Positions 15,801 through 43,851 are shown, counted from the first letter of the stretch. The stretch: 64,000 nucleotides of DNA from an uncultured Cytophagales bacterium (GCA_963833215.1 CAWHXE010000018.1:170970-234969), one strand, 5' to 3'. Program-made: numbers and translations. Notes: generated by a model not told the origin, from the letters alone.

Positions 15801-16067
15801 TCCGATAAAGGAGAACACCAGGGTTTCGGCTGTTTCACCGGCTGATAGTTGATAGTTGCCTTCAATGTCGGTGATGGTACCAATGGTGGTACCTTTCACC
15901 ACCACGTTGACCCCCGGCAGGGCACCACCGTCCTCAACTGAAGTGACTTGCCCACTAATGGACTGAGCCAAGAGGGGAGCACTGAGGCAGGAGAACAGAA
16001 AGAGAAGGAGAGGTACGCGGCAACGGTGCCCCGTAGGAACTTTGTTGCGGGTAAAGGTCATGCTCAT
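12851..16067 (-). CDS. SusC/RagA-family TonB-dependent receptor (CarboxypepD_reg N-terminal domain + plug + barrel); one frameshift near 15492-15496
   Basis: Fragments 15447..16067 (signal peptide, CarbopepD_reg, ...IRGQSSISGNNQPL) and 12851..15478 (...VPMENYQQP..., ending in the C-terminal F of the barrel). Shifting one base restores NQPLYIIDGVPMENYQ. Confidence 0.85.
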
Positions 16068-17192: not shown

Positions 17193-17243
17193 TGCTTTCT
17201 CTATAAAGCAATATTATGCTATTTTTGCTTTATAGAGAAAGCA
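17193..17243. repeat. Perfect 19-bp inverted repeat (TGCTTTCTCTATAAAGCAA ... TTGCTTTATAGAGAAAGCA) with a 13-nt spacer
   Basis: Read directly in the 65-bp divergent region between the DUF554 start (17181) and the ATPase start (17246). No T-run on either side. Confidence 0.6.
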
Positions 17244-17245
17244 TT

Positions 17246-27275: not shown

Positions 27276-28406
27276 TTATTCATCTTCGTCCTGCTCCTTT
27301 TCGCGGTGAATCTCCGGCAGGCGATCGGGCGAAAGCAGACGGAGGCCAATGGCGTGGCGGGCGGCATCTTCGGTATGTTCACAGTAGACCAGATCGACCT
27401 GATGCTCCCGCAGTGCGTCGCCAATGCCTACGATCTCTACGTCGCGGTGGTCGGGCGTCACGTCGCGAATGTAAATTGCCAGGATGCGGCCCGGAAACTC
27501 TTCCACCACCTGCCGGTAGATTTCGGGGTCGTGCTGGCTGCTGTCGCCCACCAGCACGAAGCTGAGCGAGGGGTAGGTTTCCAGAATTCGCCGGATATTG
27601 CCCAATTTGTGGGTGTTGTGCGACGGCTGAATAAACATCGTCTCGTCCAGGCCCAGGTCGCGCAGCAGCACTGGCGCCCGCGGAATGTCCTGCATCTCGA
27701 AGAAGTCGATCAGCAGATCGTAGAAGTTCCAGGGACTGCTGGAGACAAAGAAGAACGGGTTGTGCGATTTTTCCAGACCGCCCACCTGCAGGGCCCGGTA
27801 GAAGGCCGCCACCCCCGGAAAGGGCAGCCGGGCCGTAGCATTTTCCATGAAGGCACGCCGAAACATCTGCAGCAACCGACCCACGTCCGACACCAGCACC
27901 GTGTCGTCGATGTCGGAAATAATCCCAAAGTCAGACTGCATATCCGGAATCAGCACTTCTCCGGTGGCGATCACCTCGCCCTGCTCTTCCACCACGGTAT
28001 CTAGCAACCGCAGTTGCACCGGATACCAGGCGGTCGTATCTTCCAGTTGCGTTTCGTCCACCGCGAAGGTCAGGCTAAAGTAGCCTTCTTCGTCGGTTTT
28101 CGCCACGCTGGTCTGCCCCTGAAACACGCCCTGAACCCGCACAAACGGAATCTCACGGCTACCAATGCGCTTGGCCGAGGCCACCAAATTCTGCCATACC
28201 ATATCGTCGGGCATGGGCTTCACCATCCCCGTGTCTTCCAGCACCCGCCCGGTGAGGGTCACCGCCTGCTCGTTGCCGTAGCCGCGGTAGGGCACAATCA
28301 TCACCGGTTTAATTAAGTCCAACCGCTTTCGAATGGCAAATTTGGTGCGATCAAAGGAATCTTCGATACGATCGAGCAGCGTGAGCAAAGAGTTGGGCGG
28401 TGGCAT
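27276..28406 (-). CDS. App1-family (DUF2183) phosphatase-like protein
   Basis: ~376 aa from MPPPNSLLTLL, with a DUF2183-like C-terminal region (...FFFVSSSPWNFYDLL...VLVGDSSQHDPEIY...). The track's upstream start at 28466 is also possible. Confidence 0.65.
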   Translation of the reverse strand: MPPPNSLLTLLDRIEDSFDRTKFAIRKRLDLIKPVMIVPYRGYGNEQAVTLTGRVLEDTGMVKPMPDDMVWQNLVASAKRIGSREIPFVRVQGVFQGQTSVAKTDEEGYFSLTFAVDETQLEDTTAWYPVQLRLLDTVVEEQGEVIATGEVLIPDMQSDFGIISDIDDTVLVSDVGRLLQMFRRAFMENATARLPFPGVAAFYRALQVGGLEKSHNPFFFVSSSPWNFYDLLIDFFEMQDIPRAPVLLRDLGLDETMFIQPSHNTHKLGNIRRILETYPSLSFVLVGDSSQHDPEIYRQVVEEFPGRILAIYIRDVTPDHRDVEIVGIGDALREHQVDLVYCEHTEDAARHAIGLRLLSPDRLPEIHREKEQDEDE

Positions 28407-28472
28407 AGCAGAATGACTAACTGAATATTTGGGGGGGAAGGTACGAAAAGCCCTCGGGCAGCGCAACCGTTT

Positions 28473-29249
28473 CTAGTGCTGTCGCATCCAGTGTTCCAGT
28501 TCGCCCACCTTCTTCTCCAGCAAGGCGATGCGCTCTTCCTGCATCGAGGGCGGATCAAGAATAGTGCTGTAGAAACCGTCCACTTTCCAGAGTTCTTGCC
28601 AGTTGTGTTTCGACCAGTCCAGGCGAATGAAGTTCGGATTGTCGGGGCGGAATTCCAGCGTTGGGGTGGTGCTGACCAGCCGACGAACGTAAATATTCTG
28701 GTCGGTCACCAGCACGTAGACTTCGTTTTTGCGCAGGTCTTTTTTCTCCACCGGCGAACACGACAGAATGTCGCCGTGCAGCAGGCCGTGGCCGTTAAAT
28801 TCCATCGCGTTATCCTGCACCTCAAAAGCGCGGGTCTTTTCGTACTGCGTGTTCGGTAGCCGGACAAACGGCAGGTTGTTGATGTAGTCCTTGTGGTCGT
28901 AGTTGACGATGTATTCCAGGTAGTTTTCTTTGACAACCAGTGGGGTGTCTTCCTTCCGGTGGTCTTTGTCCATCAACGCCAGCCGCTCGGCATCCTCAGC
29001 AGAAGTATCGTGCTCAATGATGTTGAGTTGATACAGTTCGTCAAAGGTCAGCTCTTTGGTGAGCAGCGTGTCAATAGAAAGACTAAAATGGTTGGCAATG
29101 CTAATGACTGTGTCTATTCGAGGTTCGGCCCGTCCCTCCTCATAAGAACCAACGCTGGCTCTAGATACACTAAATAGGTCTGAAAACTCATTCTGACTTA
29201 TTTTCTGAGCACTTCTAATCTTCTTTATGTTCTTTCCAATCACTGACAT
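28473..29249 (-). CDS. XRE-family HTH + S24 (LexA/CI-like) peptidase-domain transcriptional repressor
   Basis: N-terminal HTH (IKKIRSAQKISQNEFSDLFSVSRASVGSYEEG) and a C-terminal S24 fold. Start taken at the internal MSVIGK by track arithmetic. Confidence 0.7.
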   Translation of the reverse strand: MSVIGKNIKKIRSAQKISQNEFSDLFSVSRASVGSYEEGRAEPRIDTVISIANHFSLSIDTLLTKELTFDELYQLNIIEHDTSAEDAERLALMDKDHRKEDTPLVVKENYLEYIVNYDHKDYINNLPFVRLPNTQYEKTRAFEVQDNAMEFNGHGLLHGDILSCSPVEKKDLRKNEVYVLVTDQNIYVRRLVSTTPTLEFRPDNPNFIRLDWSKHNWQELWKVDGFYSTILDPPSMQEERIALLEKKVGELEHWMRQH

Positions 29250-29439
29250 ACAATATATTTTAGCCAACTTTATTAGTAATGATAACTTTATTAGCAAATC
29301 TACGTATTAATTATTATACTGCAAGAGCAATCCAAAACTATTCAGCAGTTATTTGCCAAACCTGACCCACCATCACCATGAAATCTTTTAAACAATTAAC
29401 GTATCTTATTTCCTCCCTAACCCTTTCGTGAAAGATGAT

Positions 29440-29556
29440 GAAGTTAGCCCGTGGCAACCAGCAGTAAGCCACCAATCACTATCCATCAATACCAATAACC
29501 CAAAACCTAATCCCTAATCCCCAAAACCTAATATCCACCCAAAAACCCCATAACCC
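29440..29556. repeat. Strand-skewed AC-rich tract with degenerate CCTAATCC repeats (GGGATTAGGGATTAGG on the opposite strand)
   Basis: The plus strand is almost free of G and T. The minus strand has six or more GGG/GGGG runs, including telomere-like TTAGGG units. Confidence 0.5.
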
Positions 29557-30279
29557 ATGAGCATTTTCAATCGACTATTTAAAGTAGGACAAGCCGAAGC
29601 GCACAATGCGATCAATAAGTTGGAAGATCCGATTAAACTCACCCAGCAGGGCATTCGCGATATGCGGACCGAACTAGACAAAGCCCTACAGGCAATGGCC
29701 GAAGTGAAGGCCATGAAAATCCGGGCGCAACGTGAGGTAAGAAACGCCGAACAACAGTCGCAAGACTATGAGCAAAAGGCCGTTCTGTTGCTTAAGAAAG
29801 CCGAAACCGGCGATATAGCACCGAGCGAAGCGGACCGACTAGCCACCGAAGCCCTGAATAGAAAAGAACGGGCCGACCAGGAAGCGAACCGCCTAAACGG
29901 AGAGCAACAGCAGTACGAGGCGTCCGTGAAAAAGCTGGAAGGCAACGTTGACGTGCTCAAGTCCAACATCAATACCTGGGAAAATGAGCTAAAGAACCTA
30001 GAAGCCCGCCTGAAAGTGAGCACGGCCACCAAATCGATCAACAAGCAAATGACCAGCATCGACACGTTGAGCACAACGGCGATGTTAGAGCGCATGAAAT
30101 CTAAGGTGGAAGCCGAAGAAGCGCTGGCCGAATCGTACGGCGAACTGGCGAACGAACTCGCAAAACGTCTGGACGCGGAAATCGAGGAAGCCCTGGGCGG
30201 CGGCGACAATCCGGCCGCTTCGGAAAAACTGCTGGAACTGAAAAAACGATTACAAGAAAACAACAACAACGATGCTTGA
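29557..30279 (+). CDS. pspA: PspA/IM30 (phage-shock protein A / Vipp1, ESCRT-III-like) family protein
   Basis: 240 aa, all coiled coil, typical PspA N-terminus (MSIFNRLFKVGQAEAHNAINKLEDPIKLTQQGIRDM...). Confidence 0.85.
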   Translation: MSIFNRLFKVGQAEAHNAINKLEDPIKLTQQGIRDMRTELDKALQAMAEVKAMKIRAQREVRNAEQQSQDYEQKAVLLLKKAETGDIAPSEADRLATEALNRKERADQEANRLNGEQQQYEASVKKLEGNVDVLKSNINTWENELKNLEARLKVSTATKSINKQMTSIDTLSTTAMLERMKSKVEAEEALAESYGELANELAKRLDAEIEEALGGGDNPAASEKLLELKKRLQENNNNDA

Positions 30280-30895
30280 GCTACTCGACGCTGCCGTTTC
30301 GGCCCCGAATATTATCCCCACCGCCGGGCTGGTGTTCGTACTGATCTACTGGCTGGTGGTCATCCTGGGAGCCATCGACCTGGACTTCTTCGATGTGGAC
30401 GTAGACTTGGAGGCCGAGGCCGACGTTGACGGAGAGTTGTCGGTGTCCTGGCTCAACCACGTGCTGGTTTTCTTCAACCTGGGCCAGGTGCCGTTCATGC
30501 TGTTTCTCACCTTCCTGGTGGTGCCCTGGTGGGCCATCACGGTGCTGGGCAACCACTACTCGGGCAACGAATCATTCGTGCTGTCGCTGCTGGTGCTGGT
30601 TCCCGCCCTGCTGGCTAGTTTGTTCATCGCCAAATTTCTGACCACGCCCTTCGTGCGGGTGTATCAGGCGCTGGACCAGGAAGACAATACGACACCGGTG
30701 GGAAAAATCTGTCAGATAACTTCCTCAGCCAGTCCCACAAAGGTGGGGCAAGCGCAGGTATCCACCAATGGCGCGCCCATTGTGCTCAACGTACGGGCCT
30801 ACGAGGGCAGTTCGCTGCTGGCGGGCGACTCAGCAATGGTCATTGAGTACGACGCCGGGCGCAACGTCTACTTGGTGGAACCCTACATCAGCTAA
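30272..30895 (+). CDS. YqiJ-like (DUF1449) membrane protein with a C-terminal NfeD-like OB-fold
   Basis: 207 aa with 3-4 TM helices and a C-terminal beta-rich domain (GKICQITSSASPTKVGQAQV...). It overlaps pspA by 8 nt. Confidence 0.7.
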   Translation: MLELLDAAVSAPNIIPTAGLVFVLIYWLVVILGAIDLDFFDVDVDLEAEADVDGELSVSWLNHVLVFFNLGQVPFMLFLTFLVVPWWAITVLGNHYSGNESFVLSLLVLVPALLASLFIAKFLTTPFVRVYQALDQEDNTTPVGKICQITSSASPTKVGQAQVSTNGAPIVLNVRAYEGSSLLAGDSAMVIEYDAGRNVYLVEPYIS

Positions 30896-30952: not shown

Positions 30953-33049
30953 ATGGGAACATCAATAACACTGTTTTTACTAATTCTAGCAGTTGTCGTC
31001 GTGCTAGGCATGCTGGTTTTCTTCATCAAAATGTACCAAAAAGCGGTGCAGGGAGAAGCGCTGGTTCGTACGGGTTCGGGCGACGTGAAAGTCTCCTTTT
31101 CCGGCATCATGGTCGTGCCCGTCCTCCACAAGCTGGAGGTAATGGACATCACCCTAAAGGCGATGGAAATCTCACGGGTCGGCAAAGACGGCCTCGTGTG
31201 CCGGGACAACCTGCGGGCTGATATCAAGGTATCGTTCTTTATTCGGGTCAACAAAACCCGCGAAGACGTGGTGCACGTGGCCCAGTCGATTGGGTGCAAC
31301 CGGGCGTCTGACCCACAAGAACTACAGATGCTCTTCGATGCCAAGTTTTCGGAAGCCCTGAAGACGGTCGGTAAACACTTCGAGTTTGTGGAGTTGTATA
31401 ACTCACGCGCCCAGTTTAAAGAAAAAATCCTGGAAGAAATTGGTACGGACCTCAACGGTTACATCCTCAACGATTGCGCCATCGACTATCTCGAGCAAAC
31501 ACCGCTGGAAAGTCTGAACGAGAACAACATCCTGGACGCTGAAGGCATCAAGAAGATCATCGACCTGACCGCCCAGCAGAAGGTGCAGGCCAACCTGATC
31601 GAGAACGAGAAGCGCAAGATGCTCAAGAAGCAGGACGTGGAAGCCGAAGAAACCATCCTCGAGCTCGACAAGCAACTCACCGAGCAGCAGGAAAAGCAGG
31701 CCCGCGAGGTATCCAACATCCGGGCGCGGGAATCGGCCGAGCGCGAAAAAGTGAAGCAGGAAGAACACAAGCGCGCCGAGCAGGCCCGCATCGCCACCGA
31801 AGAAGAGATCGGCACACTGGAACAAAACAAGGAGCGGCAAATCCTGGTCGCCCAGCGCAACAAAGAACGCACCGACGCCGTTGAGCAGGAACGCGTGGAC
31901 CAGGCCCGCTTGCTGGAATCTACCGATAAGGAACGCGTGGTTGAGTTGGCCCGTATTGAGAAAGAGAAAGCCCTGGAAGAAGAGCGCCGGAATATTCAGG
32001 AAGTGATCCGCGAACGGGTAATCGTGGAGAAAGCCACGGTGATCGAGGAGGAAAAAATCAAGGACACCCGGGCAATGGCCGAGGCCGACCGAAGCAAGCA
32101 GGTGGCCATCGTGAACGCCGAGCGCGACGCGCAGGAATCTTTGGTGAAAGAAATCAAAGCCGCCGAAGCAGCCCAGCAGGCCGCCGAGCACCGCGCCAAG
32201 CAGGTGATGATCGACGCCCAGGCTGAGGAGGATTCGGCCGCGCACCGGGCCGTGGCCATGAAGACGATGGCCGACGCGGAAGCGGCCCAGAAAGCCGCCA
32301 TCGGCCTGTCCGAAGCCCAGGTGATGGAAGCCAAGGCGGCGGCCCGCGAGAAAGAGGGCGAAGCCGAAGCCGGAGTGATCGAGGCGCAGGCCGAAGCCGA
32401 CGCCAAGGGGATCAGCCTGCGCGCCGCGGCCCAGTCGGAAGCCGATCAGAAGCTGGGCATGGTGGCCGCGCAGATCAGCCTCGAGCAGGGAAAATCCGAC
32501 GCCCAGGTAGTCGAGATCAAGGCCGCGGCCGACGAAAAGCAGGGACTGGCCGAAGCCCGCGTGATGCAGCAGAAGTACAAGGCCGAAGCCGAGGGCATTC
32601 GCGAAAAAGCCAATGCCATGCAGGTGCTGGACGGTCCGGGCAAAGAGCACGAAGAATTTAAGCTGCGCCTGGAAACCGAACGCACTCTGGAACTGGCTCG
32701 CATCGACATCCAGCGCGAAATCGCCGAGTCACAAGCGAAGGTCATCAGCGAAGCCCTGAAGGCCGCCCACATCGAGATCATCGGCGGCGAAACCATGCTC
32801 TTTGACCAAATTATGGGCTCCATCGCCAAGGGCAAAGCCATCGACGGCATGATCAGCAAGAACGGGTCGTTGCAAGAGGTGAAGACCGCCCTGCTGCACT
32901 CCAACGGCGGCGGCGGACTCAAGGAAAACCTGCGCAAGCTGGTGGACCAGTTCGGCGTTTCTTCCGATGACCTAAAGAACCTGACGGTATCGGCTTTGCT
33001 GCTGAAGATGATGAACCAGACCGACGGGAAGAGGAAAAAGACGGATTAA
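30953..33049 (+). CDS. Flotillin-like SPFH/Band-7 protein (YqiK/FloT family)
   Basis: 698 aa. N-terminal TM helix, SPFH domain, then a long EA-rich coiled-coil flotillin domain. Confidence 0.8.
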   Translation: MGTSITLFLLILAVVVVLGMLVFFIKMYQKAVQGEALVRTGSGDVKVSFSGIMVVPVLHKLEVMDITLKAMEISRVGKDGLVCRDNLRADIKVSFFIRVNKTREDVVHVAQSIGCNRASDPQELQMLFDAKFSEALKTVGKHFEFVELYNSRAQFKEKILEEIGTDLNGYILNDCAIDYLEQTPLESLNENNILDAEGIKKIIDLTAQQKVQANLIENEKRKMLKKQDVEAEETILELDKQLTEQQEKQAREVSNIRARESAEREKVKQEEHKRAEQARIATEEEIGTLEQNKERQILVAQRNKERTDAVEQERVDQARLLESTDKERVVELARIEKEKALEEERRNIQEVIRERVIVEKATVIEEEKIKDTRAMAEADRSKQVAIVNAERDAQESLVKEIKAAEAAQQAAEHRAKQVMIDAQAEEDSAAHRAVAMKTMADAEAAQKAAIGLSEAQVMEAKAAAREKEGEAEAGVIEAQAEADAKGISLRAAAQSEADQKLGMVAAQISLEQGKSDAQVVEIKAAADEKQGLAEARVMQQKYKAEAEGIREKANAMQVLDGPGKEHEEFKLRLETERTLELARIDIQREIAESQAKVISEALKAAHIEIIGGETMLFDQIMGSIAKGKAIDGMISKNGSLQEVKTALLHSNGGGGLKENLRKLVDQFGVSSDDLKNLTVSALLLKMMNQTDGKRKKTD

Positions 33050-33210
33050 ATAAGTTGCTCGACCTGGCCCGCACCGCCGGATTAGCGGACGAGCCGATGC
33101 GGAATATTCAGTTGTAGAAGTGAGGCAGTCAGGTGGCTTCAAGTCGTTCGGCCGTTGCTAACTACTTACCGAAAAAATCGTAAATTGTAACTGATAAAAC
33201 TGCAAAAGCA

Positions 33211-33795
33211 ATGGACGAAGAAGTCAAAGAACGAGTCAGCACCTTGGAAGTTATTTTAGGAGAGTTCGTAGTACGTACCGAAAAGATGTTGCGGCGTATG
33301 GAACAGGACACAAAGACCTTCAAAGAAGAAGTGCGCCAGGACCGAAAAGAAATGAACAAGAGGTGGGGTGACCTAGCTAACCGCCTTGGTACCCTTGCTG
33401 AAGATATTGCTGCTCCCAACGTGCGCACAATGGCGACTACACGATTTGGATGCACAGATATTGATAGCTATTCAGTACGCGTGATGCGGCGAAGTCGGCA
33501 AGACCGAAAGAGACTAACCGAGTTTGATGTCGTTATTACCTGCGGCGACTACTTGTTTATCAACGAAACCAAATCAACTCCACGGGAAGAATACGTCCTT
33601 GATTTTGCCGAAAAGTTAGAAGACATTTTTGACTTTCTTCCGGAATACGAAGGCAAAACGGTGGTCCCTATATTTTCTAGCCTGCACCTGCCCGAACCGA
33701 TTGTTCAACTGCTTACCAAGCACAAAATCTACGCGATGGCTTTGGGTGGGGAGACGATGGAGTTACTGAATTACGAAGCGGTGCGGCATCAGTAG
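33211..33795 (+). CDS. Hypothetical protein with an N-terminal coiled coil and a putative PD-(D/E)xK nuclease-fold core
   Basis: 194 aa. The candidate motif EFDVVITCGDYLFINETKS matches D-x(n)-E-x-K geometry. No family name assigned. Confidence 0.4.
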   Translation: MDEEVKERVSTLEVILGEFVVRTEKMLRRMEQDTKTFKEEVRQDRKEMNKRWGDLANRLGTLAEDIAAPNVRTMATTRFGCTDIDSYSVRVMRRSRQDRKRLTEFDVVITCGDYLFINETKSTPREEYVLDFAEKLEDIFDFLPEYEGKTVVPIFSSLHLPEPIVQLLTKHKIYAMALGGETMELLNYEAVRHQ

Positions 33796-33864: not shown

Positions 33865-36800
33865 ATGACAGCAGCGACCACTACCGAACTGGGCAGCAGC
33901 ACCTACGAAATCCTGCAAAACCGACTCCAGCAGCAAACCCAGCAGTTGCGCGAACGTTTGCAGCAACTCAACCAGGCCCGCCAGGAGGTATTCGGAGCCA
34001 TCGAGACCAAGTTGATCGCCACCGAGCGCATTCATACCGAGCACAACTGCGTGCCCTACGATATGGTGCCGCTGGACACTAAGTTTCTGTTCGGCTACAA
34101 CGTGCATCTGGGCCTCAAGACTGCCGTGGAGCTGTCCGATGTCTTTAGTGTTTACGACTATCAGGAGCACAGCTTCCGCTCGTTGGGCTACGAACTGCTC
34201 GATGATGCCACCTTCGCGGCTGACTTTCAGAAACTGTATAAGTACTACAAAGACACCAAATTTATTCGCTTCGTGCGTCGCGGGACCGTACCTGTATATG
34301 GTCTTCCGAATCAGCAAAAGTGCCAGCGACCTCAAGGCCTTCAAGTGGGAACTAGACGGCGAAGCCTTGGTCTACCGCGACAACCGCAGCGAGCACGAAA
34401 TTGAACTGCCCGAGCAGCACGACTTCGTCTGGCAACGCACCACCCGCGACGATCAGCGCGAGGGGAAGTATCCGCACATCTCGGTGGCCGACCGGGTGTT
34501 CGTCGAAACCATCGGCGGCGACCTGACCATCAAGGTAGAAGACAATACCGAACAGGGGCAGGGCATCTACCGCGAGGAAGTTGAGAACCCCGACCAGACG
34601 CTCGACGATGCCGAAGTACACTACGCACTGCTGGGCAACATCGTGCTGCTCAAAATCCGTCCGTACCAGGAAAAGCATTACCGATACATTGCCTACAACG
34701 CCAAGTTGCAAGAAGCCCGCCGCATCGACGCGGTGGCGCAGGCCGGTATTCTGCTACCTGATGATCAGGGTATTCTATTTCCGAACGGCTACTACCTACA
34801 AACCGGTGACTTCAAACAGTTTGATAGCGAACTAAACGACTTGCGCTTCGAGCAAAAGCTGATGTCGCCCAACGGCGAAGACTATCTGTACGTTTTCTAT
34901 CACGCTGAGCGGGGCGTGTACCAACTGCTGCCCTACAACATCATTGAGCAGACGGTGCGGACGCCCATCATCGGCCACGGCTACGCCATTTTCGAGAACG
35001 GTGAACTGTGCTACTTCAACGCCGACGCCGAACCCAAGAAGCACCACGCCATCCGCATCTGGCAAACCCCCTACGTGGGTCCCAACTTTCCGCTCACCGA
35101 GCAAAGCGATTCGTACCTGTTCAAGATTGGCAACCAGGACATTGTGCGGGCGATGGCCGAGTGCCAGGCCCTAATCAGCCTAGTGGAGAAGGGCGAAAGC
35201 TACCAGGATTTGTACGTCGACCTGCAAAAGCAAGCCACCACCGTGCTGGACGCCTACTACTGGCTGGACAGTCCCGAAGCGGCCACCATCAGCGAACCAT
35301 TGCGGGCCATCCGCGAAACCGCCGTTGCCGCCACCGACGAGTTCGAGAAGGTGCGCAACCTCCGCCAGAATACCCAGCATCGCACCGATGAAGTGCTGCA
35401 ATCGGCCGATCACCTGCAGCGCGACCTGACCAAGAAGTCGTACGAGCACATCAATGATTTTGTGGCGGCACTGTCGCAACTGCGGGAGCGGCGCGGCGAA
35501 GTGATCTCGCTCAAAGAACTGCGTTTTGTTGACGAGGCGCGCGTGGCGGAGTACGAAACCCAACTGGCCGAATCGGCCGAGCGAACGGCCCAGCGGTGCG
35601 TGCGCTTTCTGCTGCGCGACGATGCGCTGCAACCCTACCACCAGCGCGTTCAATCGCTGGAAACCGACATCGCGGGTGTAAAGAAGGTGGTAGAAGCCCA
35701 GGAGCTAACCGAGCAAATCAAGCAATTGTCGGGCGAACTGGAGATGCTCATCGAGATCGTAAGCAACCTGACGATTAAGGATGCGACCCAAACTACCCAA
35801 ATTGTCGACAACATCTCGGCCATCTTCTCCGAACTCAACAAAGCCAAAGCGCAACTACAGCGCCGCCGCAAAGAGCTGATGAGCGCCGAAGGCAAAGCCG
35901 AATTTTTTGCGCAGACCAAGCTCATCAATCAGGCGATGGTGAACTACCTCGACGTGTCGGACACACCCGAAAAGTGCGACGAGTACGCCAACAAGCTGAT
36001 GGTGCAACTCGAAGAACTGGAGGGTAAGTTTGCCGAGTTCGACGAGTTCATTGAGCAGATCGCCCAGCTGCGCGAGGAGGTTTACAACGCCTTCGAGTCG
36101 CGCAAGGTGCAGTTGGTAGAGGCCCGCAACAAGCGCGCTACCAACCTGGTGCAGTCGGCCGACCGCATCCTGAAGGCGGTGCAAAACCGGGTGAGTAGCA
36201 TCAAATCGGTGACCGAACTGAACGGCTACTTTGCCGCTGACCTGATGATCGAGAAAACGCGCCGCATCATCGAGGAACTGCAACAACTCGGCGACAGCGT
36301 TCGGGCCGACGAAGTGCAGAGTCGCCTGAAGTCGGCGCAGGAAGACGCGGTGCGTCAACTGAAAGATCGTACCGAGTTGTTCGTCGACGGGCAGGACGTG
36401 ATTCGCTTCGGGGAGCACGCCTTTTCGGTGAACACCGCCGACCTGGCCCTGACCACGGTGGCTAAAGACGATCAGTTGTTTTATCACCTCACCGGCACCA
36501 ACTTTTATGAGCCAATGGCTCCCGAGCAAGTGGAGCCCTACCGGCCGTACTGGAACCAGTCGCTGGTATCGGAAACCGCGGAGGTGTACCGCGCCGAGTT
36601 CCTGGCCTACCAGCTCTACCGGGAAACCGAAGCTAGCCCTTCGTTTGAAGAACTAGCGGAGAAAGATTCGGATGCGCTGACCGCCTACGTGCAGCAGCGG
36701 ATGGCCCCGCGCTACGACGAAGGCTACGTGAAGGGCGTGCACGACCACGACGCGGCACGCATCCTGGGAGCGTTGGTGACGATGCGGCGCTCGGCCGGAC

Positions 36801-38735
36801 TGCTGCGCTACCCGGCCGAAGCGCGGACCTGCGCCGCCTTGTGCTGGCTGCACTTTCTGGAAGCTCCCGGTGCGCCAGCAGCTCAACCACCAGCTCAAGG
36901 GAGCCGGAGCCATCCTGCACGTCTTTCCCCACAGCCACGAGTTTGACCAGGTGCAGCAGGCCATCACCGCGGTGGTGGACGAGTTTGTGCGGGAAACCCA
37001 GCTTTTCGGCGGCAAAACCGTGGCCCCGGCGGCTGAGTATCTCTTCTACGAACTGATCAGCGACGACGATTTTGCCATCGATCAGGCGTCGGTGACGCTG
37101 CGCGACCAGTTTAGGAAGTACCTCGAAAAAAGCCAGGCCACTGAGGCCTACCGGCAGTCAGTAGACAATTTGCAGGATGATCGGTGGCTTCAGTACGGCC
37201 TCATCCGCCGGTGGGTGCGTTCGTTTGCCGAGCAGACCGAGCAGGACGTTCGCTTTGCCGATGAGGCCGCCCTGCTGCTGTTCTCCGACCAACTGGATAC
37301 CGACCAGGTGGCTGAAGCCACCCTGCACCAAACCCTCACCGGTTTGCAGGGTAACCATCCGCTGCTCCCGGAAGGAAACTACGCGCTGGACTACAATCAG
37401 TTCATGGATCGGCTGTCGGTTTTCGCCGAAGAAACGGTGCCTACGTTCCGAGCGTTTCAGGCGCTCAAGCGGCAGCTAACGGCAGACTTCACGAATGAGC
37501 TGCGGCTGGAGGAATTTAAACCGCGGGTGATGTCGTCCTTCGTGCGCAATCAACTGATTGACCAGGTCTACCTGCCGTTGATCGGAGCTAATTTGGCCAA
37601 GCAAATCGGCACCGCCGGAGCCAACAAGCGCACCGATCTGATGGGCATGCTGCTGCTCATCTCGCCGCCCGGCTACGGCAAAACCACCCTGATGGAGTAT
37701 CTGGCGAACCGCCTGGGCATTATTTTTATGAAAATCAACGGCCCGGCCATTGGGCACGCGGTGACGGCCGTAGACCCGGCGCAGGCTCCCAACGCCGGGG
37801 CGCGCGAGGAGCTGGAAAAGCTCAACCTGGCCTTCGAGATGGGCGACAACGTGATGATCTACCTGGACGACATCCAGCACTGCCACCCCGAGTTTTTGCA
37901 GAAGTTTATCTCCCTCTGCGACGCCCAGCGCAAGATCGAGGGCGTGTACAAGGGACGCAGCAAAACCTACGACTTTCGGGGTAAGAAGGTGTGCGTGGTG
38001 ATGGCGGGCAACCCCTACACCGAAAGCGGCGACAAGTTTCAGATTCCCGATATGCTGACCAACCGCGCCGACATCTACAACCTGGGCGACATCATCGGCG
38101 ACTCGGCCGACGCCTTCAAGCTGAGCTACATCGAGAACTGCCTGACCTCCAATCCCGTGCTCAACCAACTGGCCAGCAAAAGTCAGCGCGACGTGCAAAC
38201 GCTGGTGCGGATGGCCGAAACCGGCGAGCGGGCCGGGGCCGAGTTTGAGACCAACCATACGGCCGAAGAAGTGCGGGAGTACGTGACCGTGCTGGAAAAA
38301 CTACTGACTGTGCGCGACGTGGTGCTGCGGGTGAACACCGAGTACATTCACTCGGCGGGACAGGCGGACGCGTACCGCACCGAGCCATCCTTTAAGTTGC
38401 AGGGATCGTACCGCGACATGAACAAGCTGGCCGAGCGGGTGGTGCCGGTGATGAACGAGGCCGAACTGCAAACCCTAATCCGCGCGCACTACGAAAACGA
38501 AGCCCAGACCCTCACCACCGGGGCCGAGGCCAATCTGCTAAAGCTCAACGAAATGCGCAGCTTGCTTACCGACGAAGAGCAGCAGCGCTGGGAAGACATC
38601 AAAGCAATTTTTGTGAAGCAGCAACGCGCCAAAGGATACGGTCAGAACGGAATGGCGCAGGCGGTGGAGACGATGGAAGACATTTCGGGCAGCCTGCGCG
38701 GAATTGCGGAGGCGCTGCGGGGGAAAGAGGATTAG
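33865..38735 (+). CDS. Giant (~1,620 aa) protein: unassigned N-terminal ~450 aa, long coiled-coil middle, C-terminal AAA+ ATPase (MoxR/AAA_5-like) domain; two frameshifts
   Basis: Three colinear ORFs (33865..34404, 34139..36946, 36870..38735). Walker A LLISPPGYGKTT, Walker B VMIYLDDIQ, sensor-1-like VCVVMAGNPYT. Frame breaks at GGG(G) 34281-34284 and CC(C) 36866-36868. Confidence 0.7.
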
Positions 38736-38965: not shown

Positions 38966-39346
38966 ATGAAAGTAAAACCCATCAAAACCGAAGAGGACTA
39001 CCGAAGGGCACTCGGGCGGCTTGAGTTAATTTTTGACGCTTCAACCGACACTGATGAAGGTGACGAAGCAGAAATTTTATCTCTACTTATAGAAAATTAC
39101 GAAAACGAGTATTATCCCATTGAGGCACCCGACCCGATTGAGGCTATCAAAATTCGAATGGAAGAGCTCAACATGCGCCAGAAGGACTTGGTGGGGATCA
39201 TCGGGGGCAAAAGCCGCGTATCGGAAATCTTGAACCGAAAGAAAAAGCTGACCGTAGAAATGATCAGAGAATTAGAGCAATTGCTTCATATCTCCGCATC
39301 GGTTTTAGTGCATGATTATCAGCTTACCAGCCAGCAAGAAAAGTAA
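38966..39346 (+). CDS. HigA-like XRE-family HTH protein (antitoxin-type regulator)
   Basis: 126 aa with a C-terminal HTH (LNMRQKDLVGIIGGKSRVSEILNRKKKLTVEMIRELEQ). AT-rich local composition. Confidence 0.6.
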   Translation: MKVKPIKTEEDYRRALGRLELIFDASTDTDEGDEAEILSLLIENYENEYYPIEAPDPIEAIKIRMEELNMRQKDLVGIIGGKSRVSEILNRKKKLTVEMIRELEQLLHISASVLVHDYQLTSQQEK

Positions 39347-39433
39347 CAGCGTTTGTAGCGGAGAAAAACGGTTCTATTCCCATTAAATATGCGGAGATTA
39401 GTCCGTATATTTACCGCAAAACGACGATAGTTC

Positions 39434-40501
39434 ATGCCGAGATACATATACGAATACGAGCGTTGGCCTGAATTTGCCTGGGATAATAAACAAATCAGTT
39501 TGATTTTAGGCAAGGTTCAACATCTACAAGGAAAAGTTTTCGGGCAAATGGGAGCGCTTGGTTTTGCAGTAAAGGAAGAAACAATGTTGTCAACCTTAAC
39601 TTTGGATGTTCTAAAATCGTCTGAGATTGAAGGAGAAATGCTTAATTATGAACAGGTTCGTTCCTCGATAGCGAGAAGATTAGGATTGGAATATGCAGGT
39701 ATCGTTCACGTTGATAGAAATGTGGAAGGTGTTGTAGAAATGATGCTTGATGCAACGCAAAGGTTTGATAAACCCCTTGATCATGAACGGATTTTTGGAT
39801 GGCATGCCGCACTATTTCCAACCGGCTGGAGCGGAATACATAGAATAGATACGGGGTGTTATCGTGATGGCGAAATGCTGGTAGTTTCAGGTCCAATGGG
39901 AAGAGAGAAAATACACTTTCAAGCACCATCACCCAATGTTGTAAAAAAAGAAATGGATGAGTTTCTAGATTGGTTTAATCAAGAAACTGAACTTGACGAG
40001 GTGCTAAAAGCCGCAATTGCCCATTTTTGGTTCATCATAATTCATCCCTTTGATGATGGGAACGGGCGAATTGCCAGGGCATTATCAGACATGCTACTTG
40101 CTCGTTCCGAAGAAAGTTCTCAAAGATTTTATAGTTTGTCAAACCAGATTCTTTCTGAGAAAAAAAAGTATTATGCGGTCTTGCAGGAAGTACAATATAG
40201 TTCTGGCGATATAACGGATTGGCTAAATTGGTTTCTAAATTGTCTGTATAAAGCATTAGAGAATACGGAAGAAACGTTAAAGCGGGTTCTCAAAAAAGCA
40301 GATTTCTGGGATAAGCACAAAGAAACCTTGTTGAATAGTCGTCAAAGATTAATGTTGAACAAACTATTTGATGGATTTGATGGCAAGTTAAAATCATCTA
40401 AATGGGCTAAGATTGCTAAGTGTTCGGCTGATACTGCATTAAGAGACATAAAAGATTTGATTGAAAAAGGAATTTTACAGCAAGAAGAATCAGGAGGTTG
40501 A
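39434..40501 (+). CDS. Fic/DOC-family protein (probable AMPylator), with an N-terminal DUF4172-like region and a C-terminal wHTH
   Basis: 355 aa with the canonical Fic motif HPFDDGNGRIARAL. AT-rich. Confidence 0.85.
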   Translation: MPRYIYEYERWPEFAWDNKQISLILGKVQHLQGKVFGQMGALGFAVKEETMLSTLTLDVLKSSEIEGEMLNYEQVRSSIARRLGLEYAGIVHVDRNVEGVVEMMLDATQRFDKPLDHERIFGWHAALFPTGWSGIHRIDTGCYRDGEMLVVSGPMGREKIHFQAPSPNVVKKEMDEFLDWFNQETELDEVLKAAIAHFWFIIIHPFDDGNGRIARALSDMLLARSEESSQRFYSLSNQILSEKKKYYAVLQEVQYSSGDITDWLNWFLNCLYKALENTEETLKRVLKKADFWDKHKETLLNSRQRLMLNKLFDGFDGKLKSSKWAKIAKCSADTALRDIKDLIEKGILQQEESGG

Positions 40502-40745
40502 AGTACAAACTACGAATTTACGGAAGAATGGAGAATGCACTAGCTACAACAATGCCCATAAAAGACGAAATAGCCACTCTTAAAATTGCGATACCACTGT
40601 TGCCCTCACCGGTCAGCGAACCAGTGAAAGCCAAGAATAATCGTAAAGCTAACCAGTAGCGTCAATTACTATAATATTTCGTGATTGCGTTCAATGAATA
40701 TCATAATGATTTGTGAATGCGGCAGCAAGTGAGTAGCTTTGAAGG

Positions 40746-41864
40746 ATGATACCAAGAACGCTTGCGACACAGATACTATCAAAAATCGGTCGTGGTAAAG
40801 CCATCATGGTAATCGGGCCACGTCAAGTAGGCAAGACTACCCTGATTTTGAAATATCTGGAAGGACTCGACTACAAGTTCTTCGATGGCGACGATCCGGT
40901 AACCCGGACTTCCCTGGATACCCCTAACACCGAGCAGATCCGGGTGCTGCTTGAGAACAAAAAAGTGGTGTTTATTGATGAGGCCCAGCGAATTAATAGT
41001 ATAGGGCTAACCATGAAGATCATCGTTGATCAGTTTAAGGATGTGCAACTATGGATTAGCGGCTCTTCTTCTTTCTCGCTATTTAATGAGTTGAACGAAC
41101 CGCTAACGGGGAGGAAATGGGAATACGAGATGTTTCCAATCAGCTGGGAAGAACTGGAGCAGCACACCGGGCACTTAACGGCGGAAAGACAGTTAGAAGA
41201 CCGATTGCGATTCGGCATGTATCCCGATGTGCTCAACAATCCAGGCGAAGAGATTGAAATATTACAGAACTTAGTGAATAGCTATCTGTATAAAGATATT
41301 TTGTCTTACGCTGGTCTAAAAAAACCGGACGTTTTGGATAAACTCGTCAGAGCCCTAGCCCTGCAGGTGGGCAGTGAGGTAAACTACCAAGAACTCAGCC
41401 AGTTGGTTGGGGTGGATCGCAACACGGTTGAAAAATACATATCGGTTCTGGAAAAGGGTTACGTGGTGTTTCGCCTACCCAGTTACAACAGAAACGTGAG
41501 GAATGAGATCAAGAAGGGTAGAAAGATTTACTTCTACGACAATGGAATCAGGAACATGATTATCGGTTCTATGAATGAGATCACCTTGCGTCCGGATTTG
41601 GGGGCGCTGTGGGAGAACTTTCTTATTTCGGAACGTATCAAACAAAACAGGTATAAGTTGACCTTAGCAAAATCGTATTTCTGGAGAACCACCCAGCAAC
41701 AGGAAATAGACTACGTAGAGGAGAAAGGAACGGGGCTAAAGGCTTATGAATTTAAGTGGAGTCCCAGGAAAAAAGTGAGATTATCCAAGACTTTCACCGA
41801 CGCTTATCAAGTGGAAGGCGAGGTGATCACGAGGGAAAACTTTCGGGATTTTGTAGTGATATAG
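40746..41864 (+). CDS. AAA+ ATPase of the COG1373 type (AAA_14 + DUF4143); paralog of 17246..18439
   Basis: Walker A GPRQVGKTT, Walker B VVFIDEAQ, DUF4143-like C-terminus. Confidence 0.8.
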   Translation: MIPRTLATQILSKIGRGKAIMVIGPRQVGKTTLILKYLEGLDYKFFDGDDPVTRTSLDTPNTEQIRVLLENKKVVFIDEAQRINSIGLTMKIIVDQFKDVQLWISGSSSFSLFNELNEPLTGRKWEYEMFPISWEELEQHTGHLTAERQLEDRLRFGMYPDVLNNPGEEIEILQNLVNSYLYKDILSYAGLKKPDVLDKLVRALALQVGSEVNYQELSQLVGVDRNTVEKYISVLEKGYVVFRLPSYNRNVRNEIKKGRKIYFYDNGIRNMIIGSMNEITLRPDLGALWENFLISERIKQNRYKLTLAKSYFWRTTQQQEIDYVEEKGTGLKAYEFKWSPRKKVRLSKTFTDAYQVEGEVITRENFRDFVVI

Positions 41865-41881: not shown

Positions 41882-43851
41882 CTACGACACCACAATGCCC
41901 AACTGCTCGGCGATCTCCATCTGGGTTTTCTTGAGCAACTGGTGGTTCTGCAAGATTTTTAGCTGGGCGGCTTCGTCCGGTTCGTTGAGCAGCCCCTGCC
42001 GGGTTTCTTGCAGCAACTGGTTCAGGTACACGTACTTCAGCTCCAGAATGCCCCGCTCGATCACCTCGTGGAGCACGTCTTTCTCCTGGGGCACATGGAT
42101 TTTGTAGCGCAGCTCCCAGTTTTCGCTCAGCACGTAGTGGTCCACCACCATATCAATCACTTCCTTGGCGATCACTTCATCGCCTTCGCCAATGAGCCGT
42201 TCTTCGGTCACCGCCACCCCCTGCGCGGTGAGGGCTTGGTAGCGGTCAAAAATCTGCGCATATACCTCGGTTTGCAGGGTGATGTCTTCCAGTTCCGAGA
42301 AAATGTAGTGACAAACCTTCGTTTCTTCGTCCACCGAATAATCGCCGTAGAGCACCAGCAGGCGAGTCACGCCCTTCTCCTTGTAGTAAACCGGCGGACG
42401 GCCCACCTCGGCGGCGGGTTCGGGTAGGGTTGGCGGGGCACCGTCGTTGACTGGTTCGGCGGAGCTTATTCCGGGAAACACTTCGGATTGCGAATTTTGG
42501 GAGGCCCGTCGCGCTTCGCTGCGTTGCTGCTGGATGTGAATTTTGTTAAGCTCAGCAAACAGCACGGCCTCGTCCATATCCAGGCGCTGTCCGGTGGTTT
42601 TCACGTACACCTGCCGCTGGATGGGGTCGGGCACCTTGGCGATGCTGCCCACCACCTCGCGGATCAGTTCGGCCTGCCGGATGGGGTCCGACTGCGCCTC
42701 GCGCTCGAAAATGGTCGTTTTGAAGGCAATAAAATCCTCCTGATGCTCGGTGAGGTAGTCACGCAGTTCGCTGGTGCGCAGTTGGCGGGCCAGGGTGTCG
42801 GGGTCTTCGCCCTCGGGCAGCACCACCGCCCGCACGTTGAGCCCGCCCTCCAGCAGCATATCGATGCCCCGAAACGAGGCTTTGAGTCCGGCCGCGTCGC
42901 CGTCGAAGAGCACCGTCACGTTTTTGGTGTAGCGCGCAATGAGGCGAATCTGCTCGTGGGTGAGCGAGGTGCCCGACGAGGCCACCACGTTCTTGATGCC
43001 CGCCTGGTGGAGCGAGATCACGTCGGTGTAGCCTTCTACCAGGTAACACATATCCTCCTGTCGGATAAACTGCTTGGCCTGGTAGAGTCCGTAGAGCACG
43101 TCGCTCTTGTGGTAGATTGGCGTCTCGGGCGAGTTGATGTACTTCGCAACTTTCTCCGTTTTATTACCCAAAATCCGTGCGCCAAAGGCCAGCACCCGGC
43201 CCGAGATATTGTGCACCGGAAACATTACCCGCCCGCGGAAGCGGTCGTAGCTTCGCTCCGGTTTTCCACTCCTCCGCTTCTTTTTTCACCACCAAACCCG
43301 CTTTTTCCAGCAGCGTCGGGTTGTGCCCCTTCGCGGTGGCTTCCTTGAGCAGCCCGTCCCACTGGTCGAGGCTATAGCCCAGCCCAAACTCCCGGATGGT
43401 TTCTTCACTAAAGCCGCGTTCCTTAAAATAAGAAAGTCCGATGGACTGTCCTTCTTCGTTTTCCCACAGCATCTGCTGAAAGTAGGCGTTGGCAAATTTC
43501 ATGACGATAAACAGGCTCTCGCGCTCGTTCTGCGCCAGCAGCTGCTCATCGGTGGGGGCTTCTTCGGCAATCTCGATGCCGTACTTCTTGGCCAGGTGCT
43601 TGATGGCTTCCAGGTAGTTCATCCCCTCCACCTCCATCAGGAAGGTAATCGCATCGCCCGCCTTGCCCGAGCTAAAGTCTTTGAAGAACCCCTTGGAGGG
43701 CACCACGTAGAACGAGGGCGTGCGCTCCTGGTTAAAGGGACTGAGTCCGCGGTAGTTGCTGCCCGATTTTTTCAGGTTCACGTAGTCGCCCACCACCTCC
43801 AGCAGGTCGGCCCGGGCCTTGATTTCGTTCGATGGTTTCGCGGGGGATCAT
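41882..43851 (-). CDS. dnaG: DNA primase DnaG; two frameshifts
   Basis: Zinc-binding N-terminus (LKKSGSNYRGLSPFNQERTPSF), TOPRIM core (MFPVHNISGRV...EGYTDVISLHQAG). The true N-terminus MIPRETIER starts at 43851. Indels in the T6 run at 43281-43286 and the TTT run at 43824-43826. Confidence 0.85.

Follow-up and report, generated by a model that had tools for sequence, protein, structure and literature searches.

Bacterial flotillins build large assemblies on membranes, as do PspA/ESCRT-III proteins, and canonical MoxR ATPases act together with a VWA/MIDAS partner. As for the ATPases that might act on such assemblies, bacteria seem, according to a 2025 review (PMC7619361), to possess no Vps4-like ATPase for PspA. 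Ravi et al. 2024 (PMC11237479) described, by comparative genomics, the architecture of a giant ATPase and the type of operon that encodes it, and a chaperone or remodelling role was proposed for this operon type. Here, we analyzed a locus of the same kind in a 64,000-nucleotide stretch of DNA from an uncultured Cytophagales bacterium (hereafter, the window). Its giant ATPase gene (33865–38735, + strand; three ORFs joined after two 1-nt deletions, corrected product of 1,622 aa) encodes a protein that matches the published exemplar family in its length and in the identity and order of its Pfam domains, and that aligns with it collinearly from end to end. A known family hence gains a member, whose architecture and operon had already been described in that study. 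The lineage examined here differs from the exemplar by an extra 194-aa gene in front of the ATPase gene and by an assembly with frame breaks; moreover, the CesT/Tir (YjfI-like) gene found in front of pspA in the exemplar, Hymenobacter DG25B, and pQBR103 is missing from this lineage.

Integrity of the giant ATPase gene

As assembled, the gene falls into three + strand ORFs (33865–34404 in frame 1, 34139–36946 in frame 2, and 36870–38735 in frame 0), with a +1 shift at each junction. Removal of one base from a GGG run (34282–34284) and of another from a CCC run (36866–36868) yields a single ORF of 1,622 codons with no internal stop. At the first break, an extra G within codons R138-G139-P140, the homologous locus L002 is one base shorter and the DUF3686 domain continues across the junction; the second break, an extra C around aa 1000–1001, was placed by alignments of the joined protein and of the L002 DNA. 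A sequence-only reading of the window had proposed one gene of ~1,620 aa cut by two 1-nt indels and had named the intervals 34275–34300 and 36855–36880 for resequencing. Each interval indeed contains one of the two break sites, and the single gene is borne out by the joined ORF as well as by the alignments: the joined protein aligns without gaps over both junctions to intact homologues of 1,617–1,660 aa (coverage 99–100%), with FVRRGPYLYM identical in homologue P0001 and HFLEAPVRQQLNHQLKG of the joined protein matching HFLEPSVRNKLNHQLKG, and DNA alignment to L002 (86% identical) revealed exactly one surplus base in the window per break site.

With two frame-disrupting 1-nt insertions here and a further indel in the nearby flotillin gene, the locus could also be a pseudogene with genuine frame breaks. 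We consider such decay very improbable: all three pieces (179, 935, and 621 codons) are fully open, each shows a dN/dS of 0.05–0.10 and thus purifying selection, and identical-looking breaks occur in the essential primase gene dnaG and in at least four other genes within 64 kb, which indicates an assembly-wide indel error. The genes with similar 1-nt breaks are dnaG (junction at ~43164–43225) and those for a TonB-dependent receptor, a GH9 cellulase, a sensor kinase, and the flotillin, the last ending at 33049 as assembled, with a 1-nt deletion near 33032 and the true stop at 33115–33117. Because several other genes of the window, including dnaG, are broken in the same way, the giant gene is most likely one functional gene, its breaks being errors of assembly and not signs of decay. 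Since this assembly carries frequent 1-nt indels, apparent pseudogenes in the window are untrustworthy.

Family, domains, and AAA+ lineage of the giant protein

The giant protein has more than 5,242 database matches at E ≤ 1e-10—an observation therefore far beyond chance—the best with 91% identity over 99% of the length; among the best 120 matches, query coverage is 99–100% and identity 56–91%. While the N-terminal and middle parts had seemed to belong to no nameable family, both carry Pfam domains. DUF3686 (PF12458; cutoff 25) scores above its gathering threshold with 129.6 bits in ORF 1 and 480 bits in ORF 2, the respective model positions (2–120 and 109–448) being contiguous across the first break, and the helical middle contains a full-model match (1–85) to DUF7902 (PF25472; 105.1 bits, cutoff 26). 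Profile scores for the ATPase were 30.1 bits for AAA, 28.5 bits for AAA_5 (cutoff 22), and 25.9 bits for RuvB_N. Among 1.84 billion library proteins, grouped into clusters at 50% identity, DUF3686 matches 494 representatives (E ≤ 0.001) and, where the match is full length, occupies ~aa 140–520 of proteins of 1,600–1,900 aa. The motifs SPPGYGKTT, DDIQH, AGNPYTE, and QGSYR are conserved among 64 diverse family representatives. Judged by these sequence matches, the giant protein is a member of the large family with Pfam architecture DUF3686 + DUF7902 + AAA, named "DNA repair ATPase" by NCBI. The sequence-only reading had expected a label of this kind without experimental backing, and this held: the label is found on the homologues, and our literature searches retrieved no experimental work on the DUF3686/PF12458 family or on its ties to flotillin or MoxR, and neither DUF3686 nor PF12458 is cited by any paper of the library searched. 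A PDB search with the giant protein and a 50-sequence family profile returned only P-loop-level matches (RuvB, NVL, p97, Rix7) and no solved relative.

The structure prediction called for by the sequence-only reading was run for the N-terminal and C-terminal parts, yielding a propeller in the former and one AAA+ fold in the latter. For the N-terminal part, the AF2 model is that of residues 1–530 of P0001 (91% identical; pLDDT 86.9, pTM 0.83). A long N-terminal helix (aa ~13–46; 33901–34002, + strand) packs against helices 420–526 in this model, and the core of DUF3686 (aa ~50–405; 34012–35080, + strand) is predicted to form ~6–7 blades. Generic helical bundles aside, structure comparison of the model matched propellers only; the predicted N-terminal fold is a divergent β-propeller. 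It is followed by a helical, heptad-periodic region (aa ~410–840; 35093–36385, + strand; G+P content 3%), of which aa 420–526 are covered by the model and which encloses DUF7902 (PF25472; aa ~632–716; 35759–36013, + strand). The helical, heptad-like character that had been claimed for the middle was thereby confirmed, and for aa 527–835 heptad periodicity and composition point to an extended coiled coil. A small β domain and an α-helical array, together the least conserved part (aa ~845–1235; 36398–37571, + strand), precede the ATPase. Since hhalign gave probabilities below 1% when the N-terminal part, the middle, and the region before the ATPase were compared with PspA, flotillin, and YqiJ alignments, these non-ATPase regions are not homologous to those partners, and we rejected them as partner homologues.

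The three ATPase motifs quoted in the sequence-only reading were all located in the corrected protein: Walker A GYGKTT at aa 1269–1274 (nt 37671–37688), Walker B IYLDDIQ at aa 1331–1337 (nt 37857–37877), and sensor-1 VMAGNPY at aa 1378–1384 (nt 37998–38018). They belong to an AAA+ α/β core (aa ~1240–1450; 37584–38216, + strand) with K1272 in Walker A, D1334-D1335 in Walker B, N1382 in sensor-1, and R1400 as candidate Arg finger. The helical lid and C-terminal region (aa ~1451–1622; 38217–38732, + strand) harbors a near-invariant RTEPxFKLQGSYRxM motif with R1516 as candidate sensor-2. A 788-residue C-terminal model has one AAA+ fold, and Walker A and B occur in it once; a β-hairpin (strands 524–529 and 532–537; ~aa 1359–1372) lies between helix α3 and the sensor-1 strand, and no hairpin is predicted in the 18-residue β2-α2 segment. 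In terms of AAA+ classification, the former may occupy the pre-sensor-1 position, and the latter was inspected for the helix-2 insert, the other feature of the clade. Structurally, the ATPase core is closest to MoxR members, its nearest relatives being CbbQ and NorQ, and the best explanation is that this single C-terminal AAA+ module belongs to the MoxR/dynein/midasin lineage.

Within this lineage, the protein stands apart from the described members. MoxR ATPases (CbbQ, NorQ, RavA) are compact, single-module proteins of ~300–500 aa with an Asp-Glu Walker B, whereas the giant protein, with its 1,622 aa ~5 times larger, adds a propeller and a long helical arm, has an Asp-Asp pair (D1334-D1335) that is invariant across the family, and shares only 15–16% identity with them. 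Dynein and midasin (Rea1), in turn, contain six concatenated AAA+ modules instead of one per chain and lack homology to the giant protein outside the ATPase core. That the protein is a genuine DNA-repair ATPase, as its database name has it, is exceedingly unlikely. The Pfam and NCBI names, a weak RuvB_N P-loop similarity, a LexA-family regulator next to the operon and, indirectly, the increased spontaneous mutation in a Shewanella flotillin knock-out (PMC1468410) would fit such a function; in the protein itself we found no match to an equivalog model of bona fide DNA-repair ATPases (RuvB, SMC/Rad50-type) and no DNA-binding or nuclease domain. The name "DNA repair ATPase" is misleading and is corrected here, and the ATPase is placed in the MoxR/dynein lineage.

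The operon and its conservation

In the window, the operon starts next to a divergently transcribed regulator of the LexA/CI type (28473–29297, − strand), assigned by its HTH_3 and Peptidase_S24 domain matches. On the + strand follow genes for PspA/IM30, a bacterial ESCRT-III protein (29557–30279; PF04012, E 6.9e-45), a YqiJ/DUF1449-like 3-TM protein of the NfeD-type flotillin partners (30272–30895; weak YqiJ_N match, orthologue annotated as DUF1449), and a flotillin-like SPFH protein (30953–33117; Band_7, E 1.6e-12) with one N-terminal TM segment and a long E/A/K-rich coiled coil. The 194-aa lineage-specific gene (33211–33795, + strand) lies between the flotillin and giant genes. With homologues only in the two closest relatives, it was rejected as a core component or CesT/Tir equivalent; elsewhere, its position is taken by unrelated genes—for example, apparent DUF559-like and RAYT-like ORFs or lipoproteins, to go by visual inspection of their N-terminal sequences. 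Scanning for promoter and terminator consensus sequences, and looking for repeats between the regulator gene and pspA, produced counts near the means of shuffled sequence and revealed no clear operator. Two 407-aa ORFs (17216–18439 and 45491–46714) are of equal length and unrelated in sequence, and were discarded as repeats.

Gene linkage was assessed in loci from Bacteroidota, Planctomycetota, Verrucomicrobiota, Desulfobacterota, Clostridia, and Fibrobacterota. In 60 of the 62 testable loci, the ATPase gene has a same-strand flotillin gene directly upstream, and in 59 a YqiJ-like gene is present. PspA occurs in 22 of the 62, mainly in Bacteroidota, and the HTH_3 + Peptidase_S24 regulator likewise in 22, nearly all of which have PspA too. 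The constant partner is flotillin plus the YqiJ-like membrane protein, and PspA is an add-on. The tie to flotillin and PspA suspected in the sequence-only reading consequently stands for flotillin, with the YqiJ-like protein to be included, but not for PspA as a constant companion. The order YqiJ-like → flotillin → ATPase was seen in the window, in 59–60 of the 62 loci, and in five further loci; Pseudomonas pQBR103, Proteus, Streptomyces, and Deinococcus have the same gene order. In 29 of 56 loci, no more than 150 nt separate the flotillin stop from the point where the open frame of the giant gene begins. The lengths of flotillin and ATPase correlate weakly (rho 0.40) with phylogeny as a confounder, and for these reasons the correlation was not used as evidence.

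The surroundings of the operon also bear on whether it could be a membrane-associated conflict or defence module that senses envelope damage (e.g., phage attack), with the ATPase as effector or switch. In the window, it has defence-type neighbours (a fragment resembling PD-Lambda-2_B, SoFic, and PDC-S01), operon copies exist on megaplasmids, the HTH-S24 repressor is of the phage CI/LexA type, and the C-terminal end of the flotillin shows a weak similarity, falling just short of the cutoff (E 1e-4), to the "FtsH ternary system" domain fvmX5. However, the downstream defence-like genes are missing in the close relatives L001 and L002, no phage copy was found, and conservation of the family extends broadly over the phyla sampled, with lengths kept within narrow bounds. 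Moreover, PADLOC 2.0 on the four core proteins produced only coiled-coil and P-loop noise (E 1e-4 to 4e-3), and neither PADLOC nor PDB profiles gave a specific match for the operon proteins. We therefore regard a defence function as clearly unlikely.

Possible roles at the flotillin platform

Given the near-constant adjacency to flotillin, the role of the giant ATPase is probably in membrane-scaffold remodelling and not in DNA repair. More specifically, we see an about even chance that it uses ATP to remodel the flotillin (and PspA) platform, or to chaperone it, in envelope stress, a role inferred from sequence and gene order, as is the mechanochemical or scaffold role suggested in the sequence-only reading. 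The conserved module consists of the YqiJ-like 3-TM protein, flotillin and, encoded by the last gene, the giant ATPase, joined in the Cytophagales bacterium studied here by PspA and the LexA/CI-type repressor. Transmembrane prediction assigns three segments to the YqiJ-like protein, one N-terminal segment to flotillin, and none to the giant protein, which is soluble and taken to be cytoplasmic. The AAA+ modules would oligomerise, probably into a hexamer as in other MoxR ATPases, and the propeller and helical arm may dock onto the cytoplasmic flotillin assembly as well as onto PspA polymers where present. ATP binding and hydrolysis could remodel the platform or its clients during envelope stress, whether by assembling, opening, or disassembling it or by loading clients. 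The invariant Asp-Asp Walker B, together with the lack of an aromatic pore loop, suggests a slow, switch-like remodeller and not a processive unfoldase. Against the remodelling role speak the missing VWA/MIDAS partner and the lack of homology between the non-ATPase regions and PspA, flotillin, or YqiJ.

Alternatively, the ATPase could be housed by the flotillin scaffold and act on other membrane-associated proteins gathered in the flotillin microdomain, which it would mature, extract, or stabilise, instead of on flotillin or PspA. The MoxR maturation chaperones CbbQ and NorQ are its nearest structural relatives, β-propellers are typical client- or peptide-binding modules, and an SPFH cage combined with an AAA+ machine is an established theme (HflK/C–FtsH, prohibitin–m-AAA); according to PMC11222466, unfolded proteins are stabilised by bacterial flotillin microdomains. 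Like HflK/C–FtsH and prohibitin–m-AAA, the locus would combine an SPFH-family scaffold with an AAA+ enzyme on the membrane, a pairing that gene order suggests in our case; unlike those enzymes, the giant ATPase is soluble, comes from another AAA+ clade, and carries no protease domain. Still, we rate a purely client-directed chaperone, with which our evidence is as compatible as with a remodeller, as rather unlikely: no conserved candidate client is encoded nearby, as genes outside the triad differ between lineages, and the VWA adaptor normally needed by MoxR chaperones is missing, with no VWA/MIDAS partner encoded in the operon here or in the related loci examined.

A narrower form of the remodelling role, which we put forward tentatively as possible but on balance doubtful, is that the giant ATPase opens or disassembles cytoplasmic flotillin (SPFH) cages and, in loci that encode PspA, PspA/ESCRT-III polymers, and might thereby be the missing energy source of scaffold dynamics. 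Like the ESCRT-III disassemblase Vps4, it is an AAA+ ATPase coupled genetically to an ESCRT-III superfamily protein, here PspA, and therefore a possible functional analogue; the features of Vps4 itself—an N-terminal MIT domain and a classical-clade AAA module with an aromatic pore loop—were not found in the giant protein. If true, this analogue would be a non-homologous one, with the propeller and helical arm replacing the MIT domain. Being the near-obligate genetic partner of one flotillin subtype in every sampled phylum, the family is a concrete candidate for assembling, opening, or recycling flotillin and PspA/ESCRT-III assemblies, and tractable hosts are at hand in Proteus mirabilis, P. 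fluorescens SBW25 with pQBR103, Streptomyces, and flavobacteria.

A single reading frame across two breaks

The giant ATPase gene (33865–38735, plus strand) is distributed over three overlapping ORFs—33865–34404 in frame 1, 34139–36946 in frame 2, and 36870–38735 in frame 0—which the sequence-only reading had joined into one gene by allowing two 1-nt indels. Reading the DNA at the overlaps, we located the breaks in a GGG run at 34282–34284 and a CCC run at 36866–36868, at each of which the sense frame shifts by +1. Deletion of one base at each break restored a 1,622-codon ORF with zero internal stops, whose product aligned gaplessly to intact homologs over both junctions. The peptide at the first junction, FVRRGPYLYM, is the same in the best database match (P0001, 91% identity), and the Pfam match to DUF3686 runs unbroken across it. 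In a whole-operon DNA alignment to the related locus L002 (86% nucleotide identity), the window contained exactly one extra base at each break, bearing out the one-gene interpretation. All three fragments are under strong purifying selection (dN/dS against L002 of 0.052, 0.088, and 0.097 in the corrected frame) and are fully open over 179, 935, and 621 codons.

Around nine frame breaks occur in the 64-kb window, and one essential gene is among those hit. The primase gene dnaG (41882–43796, minus strand) is divided into two ORFs in different frames, one encoding the zinc ribbon and DNAG_N positions 1–69 (43164–43796) and the other DNAG_N positions 80–128, Toprim, and DnaB_bind (41882–43225); such a split of an essential gene is strong evidence for 1-nt indel errors in the assembly. 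Also on the minus strand, a long cellulase gene (GH9/Big_2/T9SS tail; 2261–7708) is spread over four successive frames, a TonB-dependent receptor gene (12851–16067) is broken within its Plug domain, and a gene for a hybrid sensor kinase (MASE7 plus HisKA–HATPase–REC; 23422–25397) is probably split too. The adjacent flotillin gene has lost one base near 33032, close to its 3′ end. The assembled ORF therefore stops at 33049 (698 aa), while ...LNKLLDLARTAGLADEPMRNIQL*, the conserved C-terminus, is encoded in a different frame running to 33117, placing the true stop at 33115–33117 and giving a corrected length of ~720 aa versus 717–720 aa in the nearest relatives.

Purifying selection, the open fragments, and the same pathology in other genes of the window thus argue that the breaks in the giant gene are probably not real. 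Most likely, the window's breaks are the signature of an indel-prone assembly rather than of gene decay, and a true pseudogene is very unlikely. We conclude that the giant ATPase gene is intact and under selection.

Family membership and predicted fold

At E ≤ 1e-10, the giant ATPase has more than 5,242 matches among database proteins. The best 120 of these measure 1,617–1,848 aa at 99–100% query coverage and, where named, are called 'DNA repair ATPase', 'AAA family ATPase', or 'MoxR-like ATPase'. While the anatomy proposed from sequence was largely correct, the N-terminal and middle parts are not without a family as had been stated: in Pfam, aa ~28–510 correspond to DUF3686 (PF12458, 'ATPase involved in DNA repair') and aa ~632–716 to DUF7902 (PF25472), in addition to weak matches of AAA, AAA_5, and RuvB_N around aa 1247–1385. 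An exhaustive search of 1.84 billion cluster representatives (50% identity) returned only 494 for the DUF3686 part at E ≤ 0.001, and its constant place in full-length matches (about aa 140–520 of 1,600–1,900-aa proteins) indicates a fixed architecture. The sequence-only reading had anticipated the 'DNA repair' labeling; our literature search found no paper mentioning DUF3686 or PF12458, the label has no support, and a genuine DNA-repair enzyme is extremely improbable. Likewise, a sequence search of the structure database found no solved structure resembling the protein beyond the P-loop.

An AlphaFold2 model of residues 1–530 of P0001 (pLDDT 86.9, pTM 0.83) comprises a long helix (16–46), a beta-rich domain (52–403) with some six to seven blades of four strands each, and helices (420–526) bundled against the N-terminal helix. 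Since the top Foldseek matches were all propellers (FBXW8, DCAF1, Elp1, virginiamycin B lyase, paraoxonase, CyRPA, and the clathrin terminal domain; E 6e-7 to 1e-4, with low TM-scores), the N-terminal domain is predicted to be a divergent beta-propeller not tied to any particular enzyme. Further downstream, the scarcity of Gly and Pro (together only 3%) and a strong hydrophobic periodicity of 3.5–3.67 residues fit long amphipathic or coiled-coil helices over residues ~410–840, of which the model spans 420–526 only.

In the model of the C-terminal part (residues 836–1623; pLDDT 86.9), a small beta domain and a helical array precede a single AAA+ module with a helical lid. Structure comparison of this module supports the earlier 'MoxR/AAA_5-like' call, with the MoxR members CbbQ (17.3) and NorQ (16.2) above dynein (14.9), midasin (14.3), ClpA/ClpB, Cdc6, and McrB (12.4–13.1), Vps4 (11.8 and 10.9), and RuvB (10.6). 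The motifs that the sequence-only reading quoted for Walker A, Walker B, and sensor-1 all occur in the protein, and across 64 diverse family representatives we found at least 95% conservation of Walker A (SPPGYGKTT), Walker B (DDIQH, with Asp-Asp instead of Asp-Glu), sensor-1 (AGNPY; N1382), the candidate arginine finger R1400, and a QGSYR motif. The beta2-alpha2 loop lacks an aromatic pore-loop residue, and no transmembrane segment is predicted anywhere in the protein.

Operon context and its conservation

The giant ATPase gene is the last of a co-directional plus-strand cluster that begins with pspA (29557–30279), followed by genes for a YqiJ/DUF1449-like protein with three TM segments (207 aa; 30272–30895), a flotillin-like SPFH protein that combines a single N-terminal TM segment with a long coiled coil (30953–33117, corrected), and a 194-aa protein containing variable coiled-coil repeats (33211–33795). 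A potentially self-cleaving LexA/CI-type regulator (HTH_3 plus Peptidase_S24; 28473–29297, minus strand) is encoded divergently upstream of pspA. Their 260-nt intergenic region contains no clear operator palindrome; CCCAAAACCTAAT-like direct repeats lie at 29498–29555. The two closest relatives repeat this layout and are the only ones with homologs of the 194-aa protein.

The survey drew on 80 loci (one genome per species) from Bacteroidota, Planctomycetota, Verrucomicrobiota, Desulfobacterota, Fibrobacterota, and Clostridia, whose ORFs were compared with profiles of the window proteins. Upstream sequence exceeds 5 kb in 62 of them; of these, 60 have a same-strand flotillin-like gene directly before the ATPase and 59 a YqiJ-like gene upstream on that strand, compared with 22 that have pspA and two that have the 194-aa protein gene. 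The constant partner of the giant ATPase is therefore flotillin, not PspA. PspA-bearing loci are mostly from Bacteroidota, nearly all with the divergent HTH-S24 gene; in that phylum, the same regulator accompanies almost every PspA-containing operon version (loci L005–L068). In 29 of 56 loci, no more than 150 nt separate the flotillin stop from the ATPase open-frame start, frequently with overlap. The gap between both genes has repeatedly taken up unrelated small genes: in the window, the 194-aa protein gene; elsewhere (L004–L076), judging by eye, apparent DUF559-like endonucleases, REP-associated tyrosine transposase-like ORFs, and lipoproteins. The YqiJ-like–flotillin–ATPase triad also occurs in Proteus mirabilis, Streptomyces, Deinococcus, a Hymenobacter plasmid, and the Pseudomonas fluorescens plasmid pQBR103. 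The domain was found in no phage genome, and none of the PADLOC models covers the operon core proteins; a membrane-linked defense or conflict module is quite unlikely. Overall, we place high confidence in the identity and context assigned to the giant ATPase.

Exactly this operon type was described by Ravi et al. 2024 (PMC11237479): CesT/Tir-PspA plus three further genes, one encoding a YqiJ/YuaF-type 3-TM protein, with abbreviated flotillin–YqiJ(–ATPase) operons being more widespread and chaperone-like roles in membrane-complex assembly proposed. Our counts agree, sharpening the picture to flotillin as the constant partner. The CesT/Tir gene is missing in the window's lineage, unlike in Hymenobacter DG25B and pQBR103, and no ATPase gene follows the Shewanella yqiJ–flotillin dyad (SO1376/SO1377). 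Family, Pfam domains, and operon are already known from comparative genomics; the giant ATPase is a further member of a known, experimentally uncharacterized family, and the window adds nothing beyond what related genomes show. On pQBR103 of P. fluorescens SBW25 (84437–97641), the triad is joined to a YjfI–PspA–rhomboid–DUF2491–DUF350–DUF1190–glutathionylspermidine synthase cluster, uniting two PspA operon classes that Ravi et al. kept separate; this well-studied megaplasmid offers a tractable experimental system.

A possible remodeling role and flanking genes

The giant ATPase is a soluble multi-domain protein, built from a propeller, a helical arm, and a single AAA+ module of the MoxR lineage, in near-obligate operonic linkage with a membrane-anchored flotillin and its NfeD-type partner. 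MoxR ATPases are hexamers, and the protein may similarly oligomerize. Its propeller or helical arm would dock on the flotillin assembly in the cytoplasm, as well as on PspA in operons that include it, and ATP would be spent to remodel this platform or its clients under envelope stress. Given the Asp-Asp Walker B and the missing aromatic pore loop, it might act as a slow, switch-like remodeler rather than a threading unfoldase. We propose this remodeling mechanism tentatively, rating it at slightly below even; a client-directed chaperone merely using flotillin as a scaffold appears doubtful. A 2025 review considered a Vps4-like ATPase apparently absent from bacteria (PMC7619361), and this family is a plausible choice for the ATP-driven partner that bacterial flotillin/PspA scaffolds are missing.

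The C-terminal third of the flotillin (32450–33049) gave a weak, sub-threshold Pfam match to fvmX5, 'FtsH ternary system domain X5' (E 1e-4; 22.7 bits versus a cutoff of 24.2), which may reflect coiled-coil composition bias or a genuine SPFH/FtsH-type link. A lower-GC islet (0.43–0.48; 38966–41864, plus strand) separates the operon from dnaG and carries defense-type genes that the close relative L001 lacks on the 3′ side of its operon. One encodes a 126-aa HTH protein that resembles PD-Lambda-2_B over positions 1–127 of its 402 and no further (E 6e-43); a second encodes a DUF4172-Fic protein with a match to SoFic (E 1e-47), and a third an AAA_14/DUF4143 protein with a match to PDC-S01 (E 3e-160). 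On the other flank, just past the regulator, an APP1-type phosphatidate phosphatase gene (PF09949, E 2e-49; 27276–28466, minus strand), also adjacent in L002, is a possible lipid-metabolism neighbor of this membrane-stress operon.
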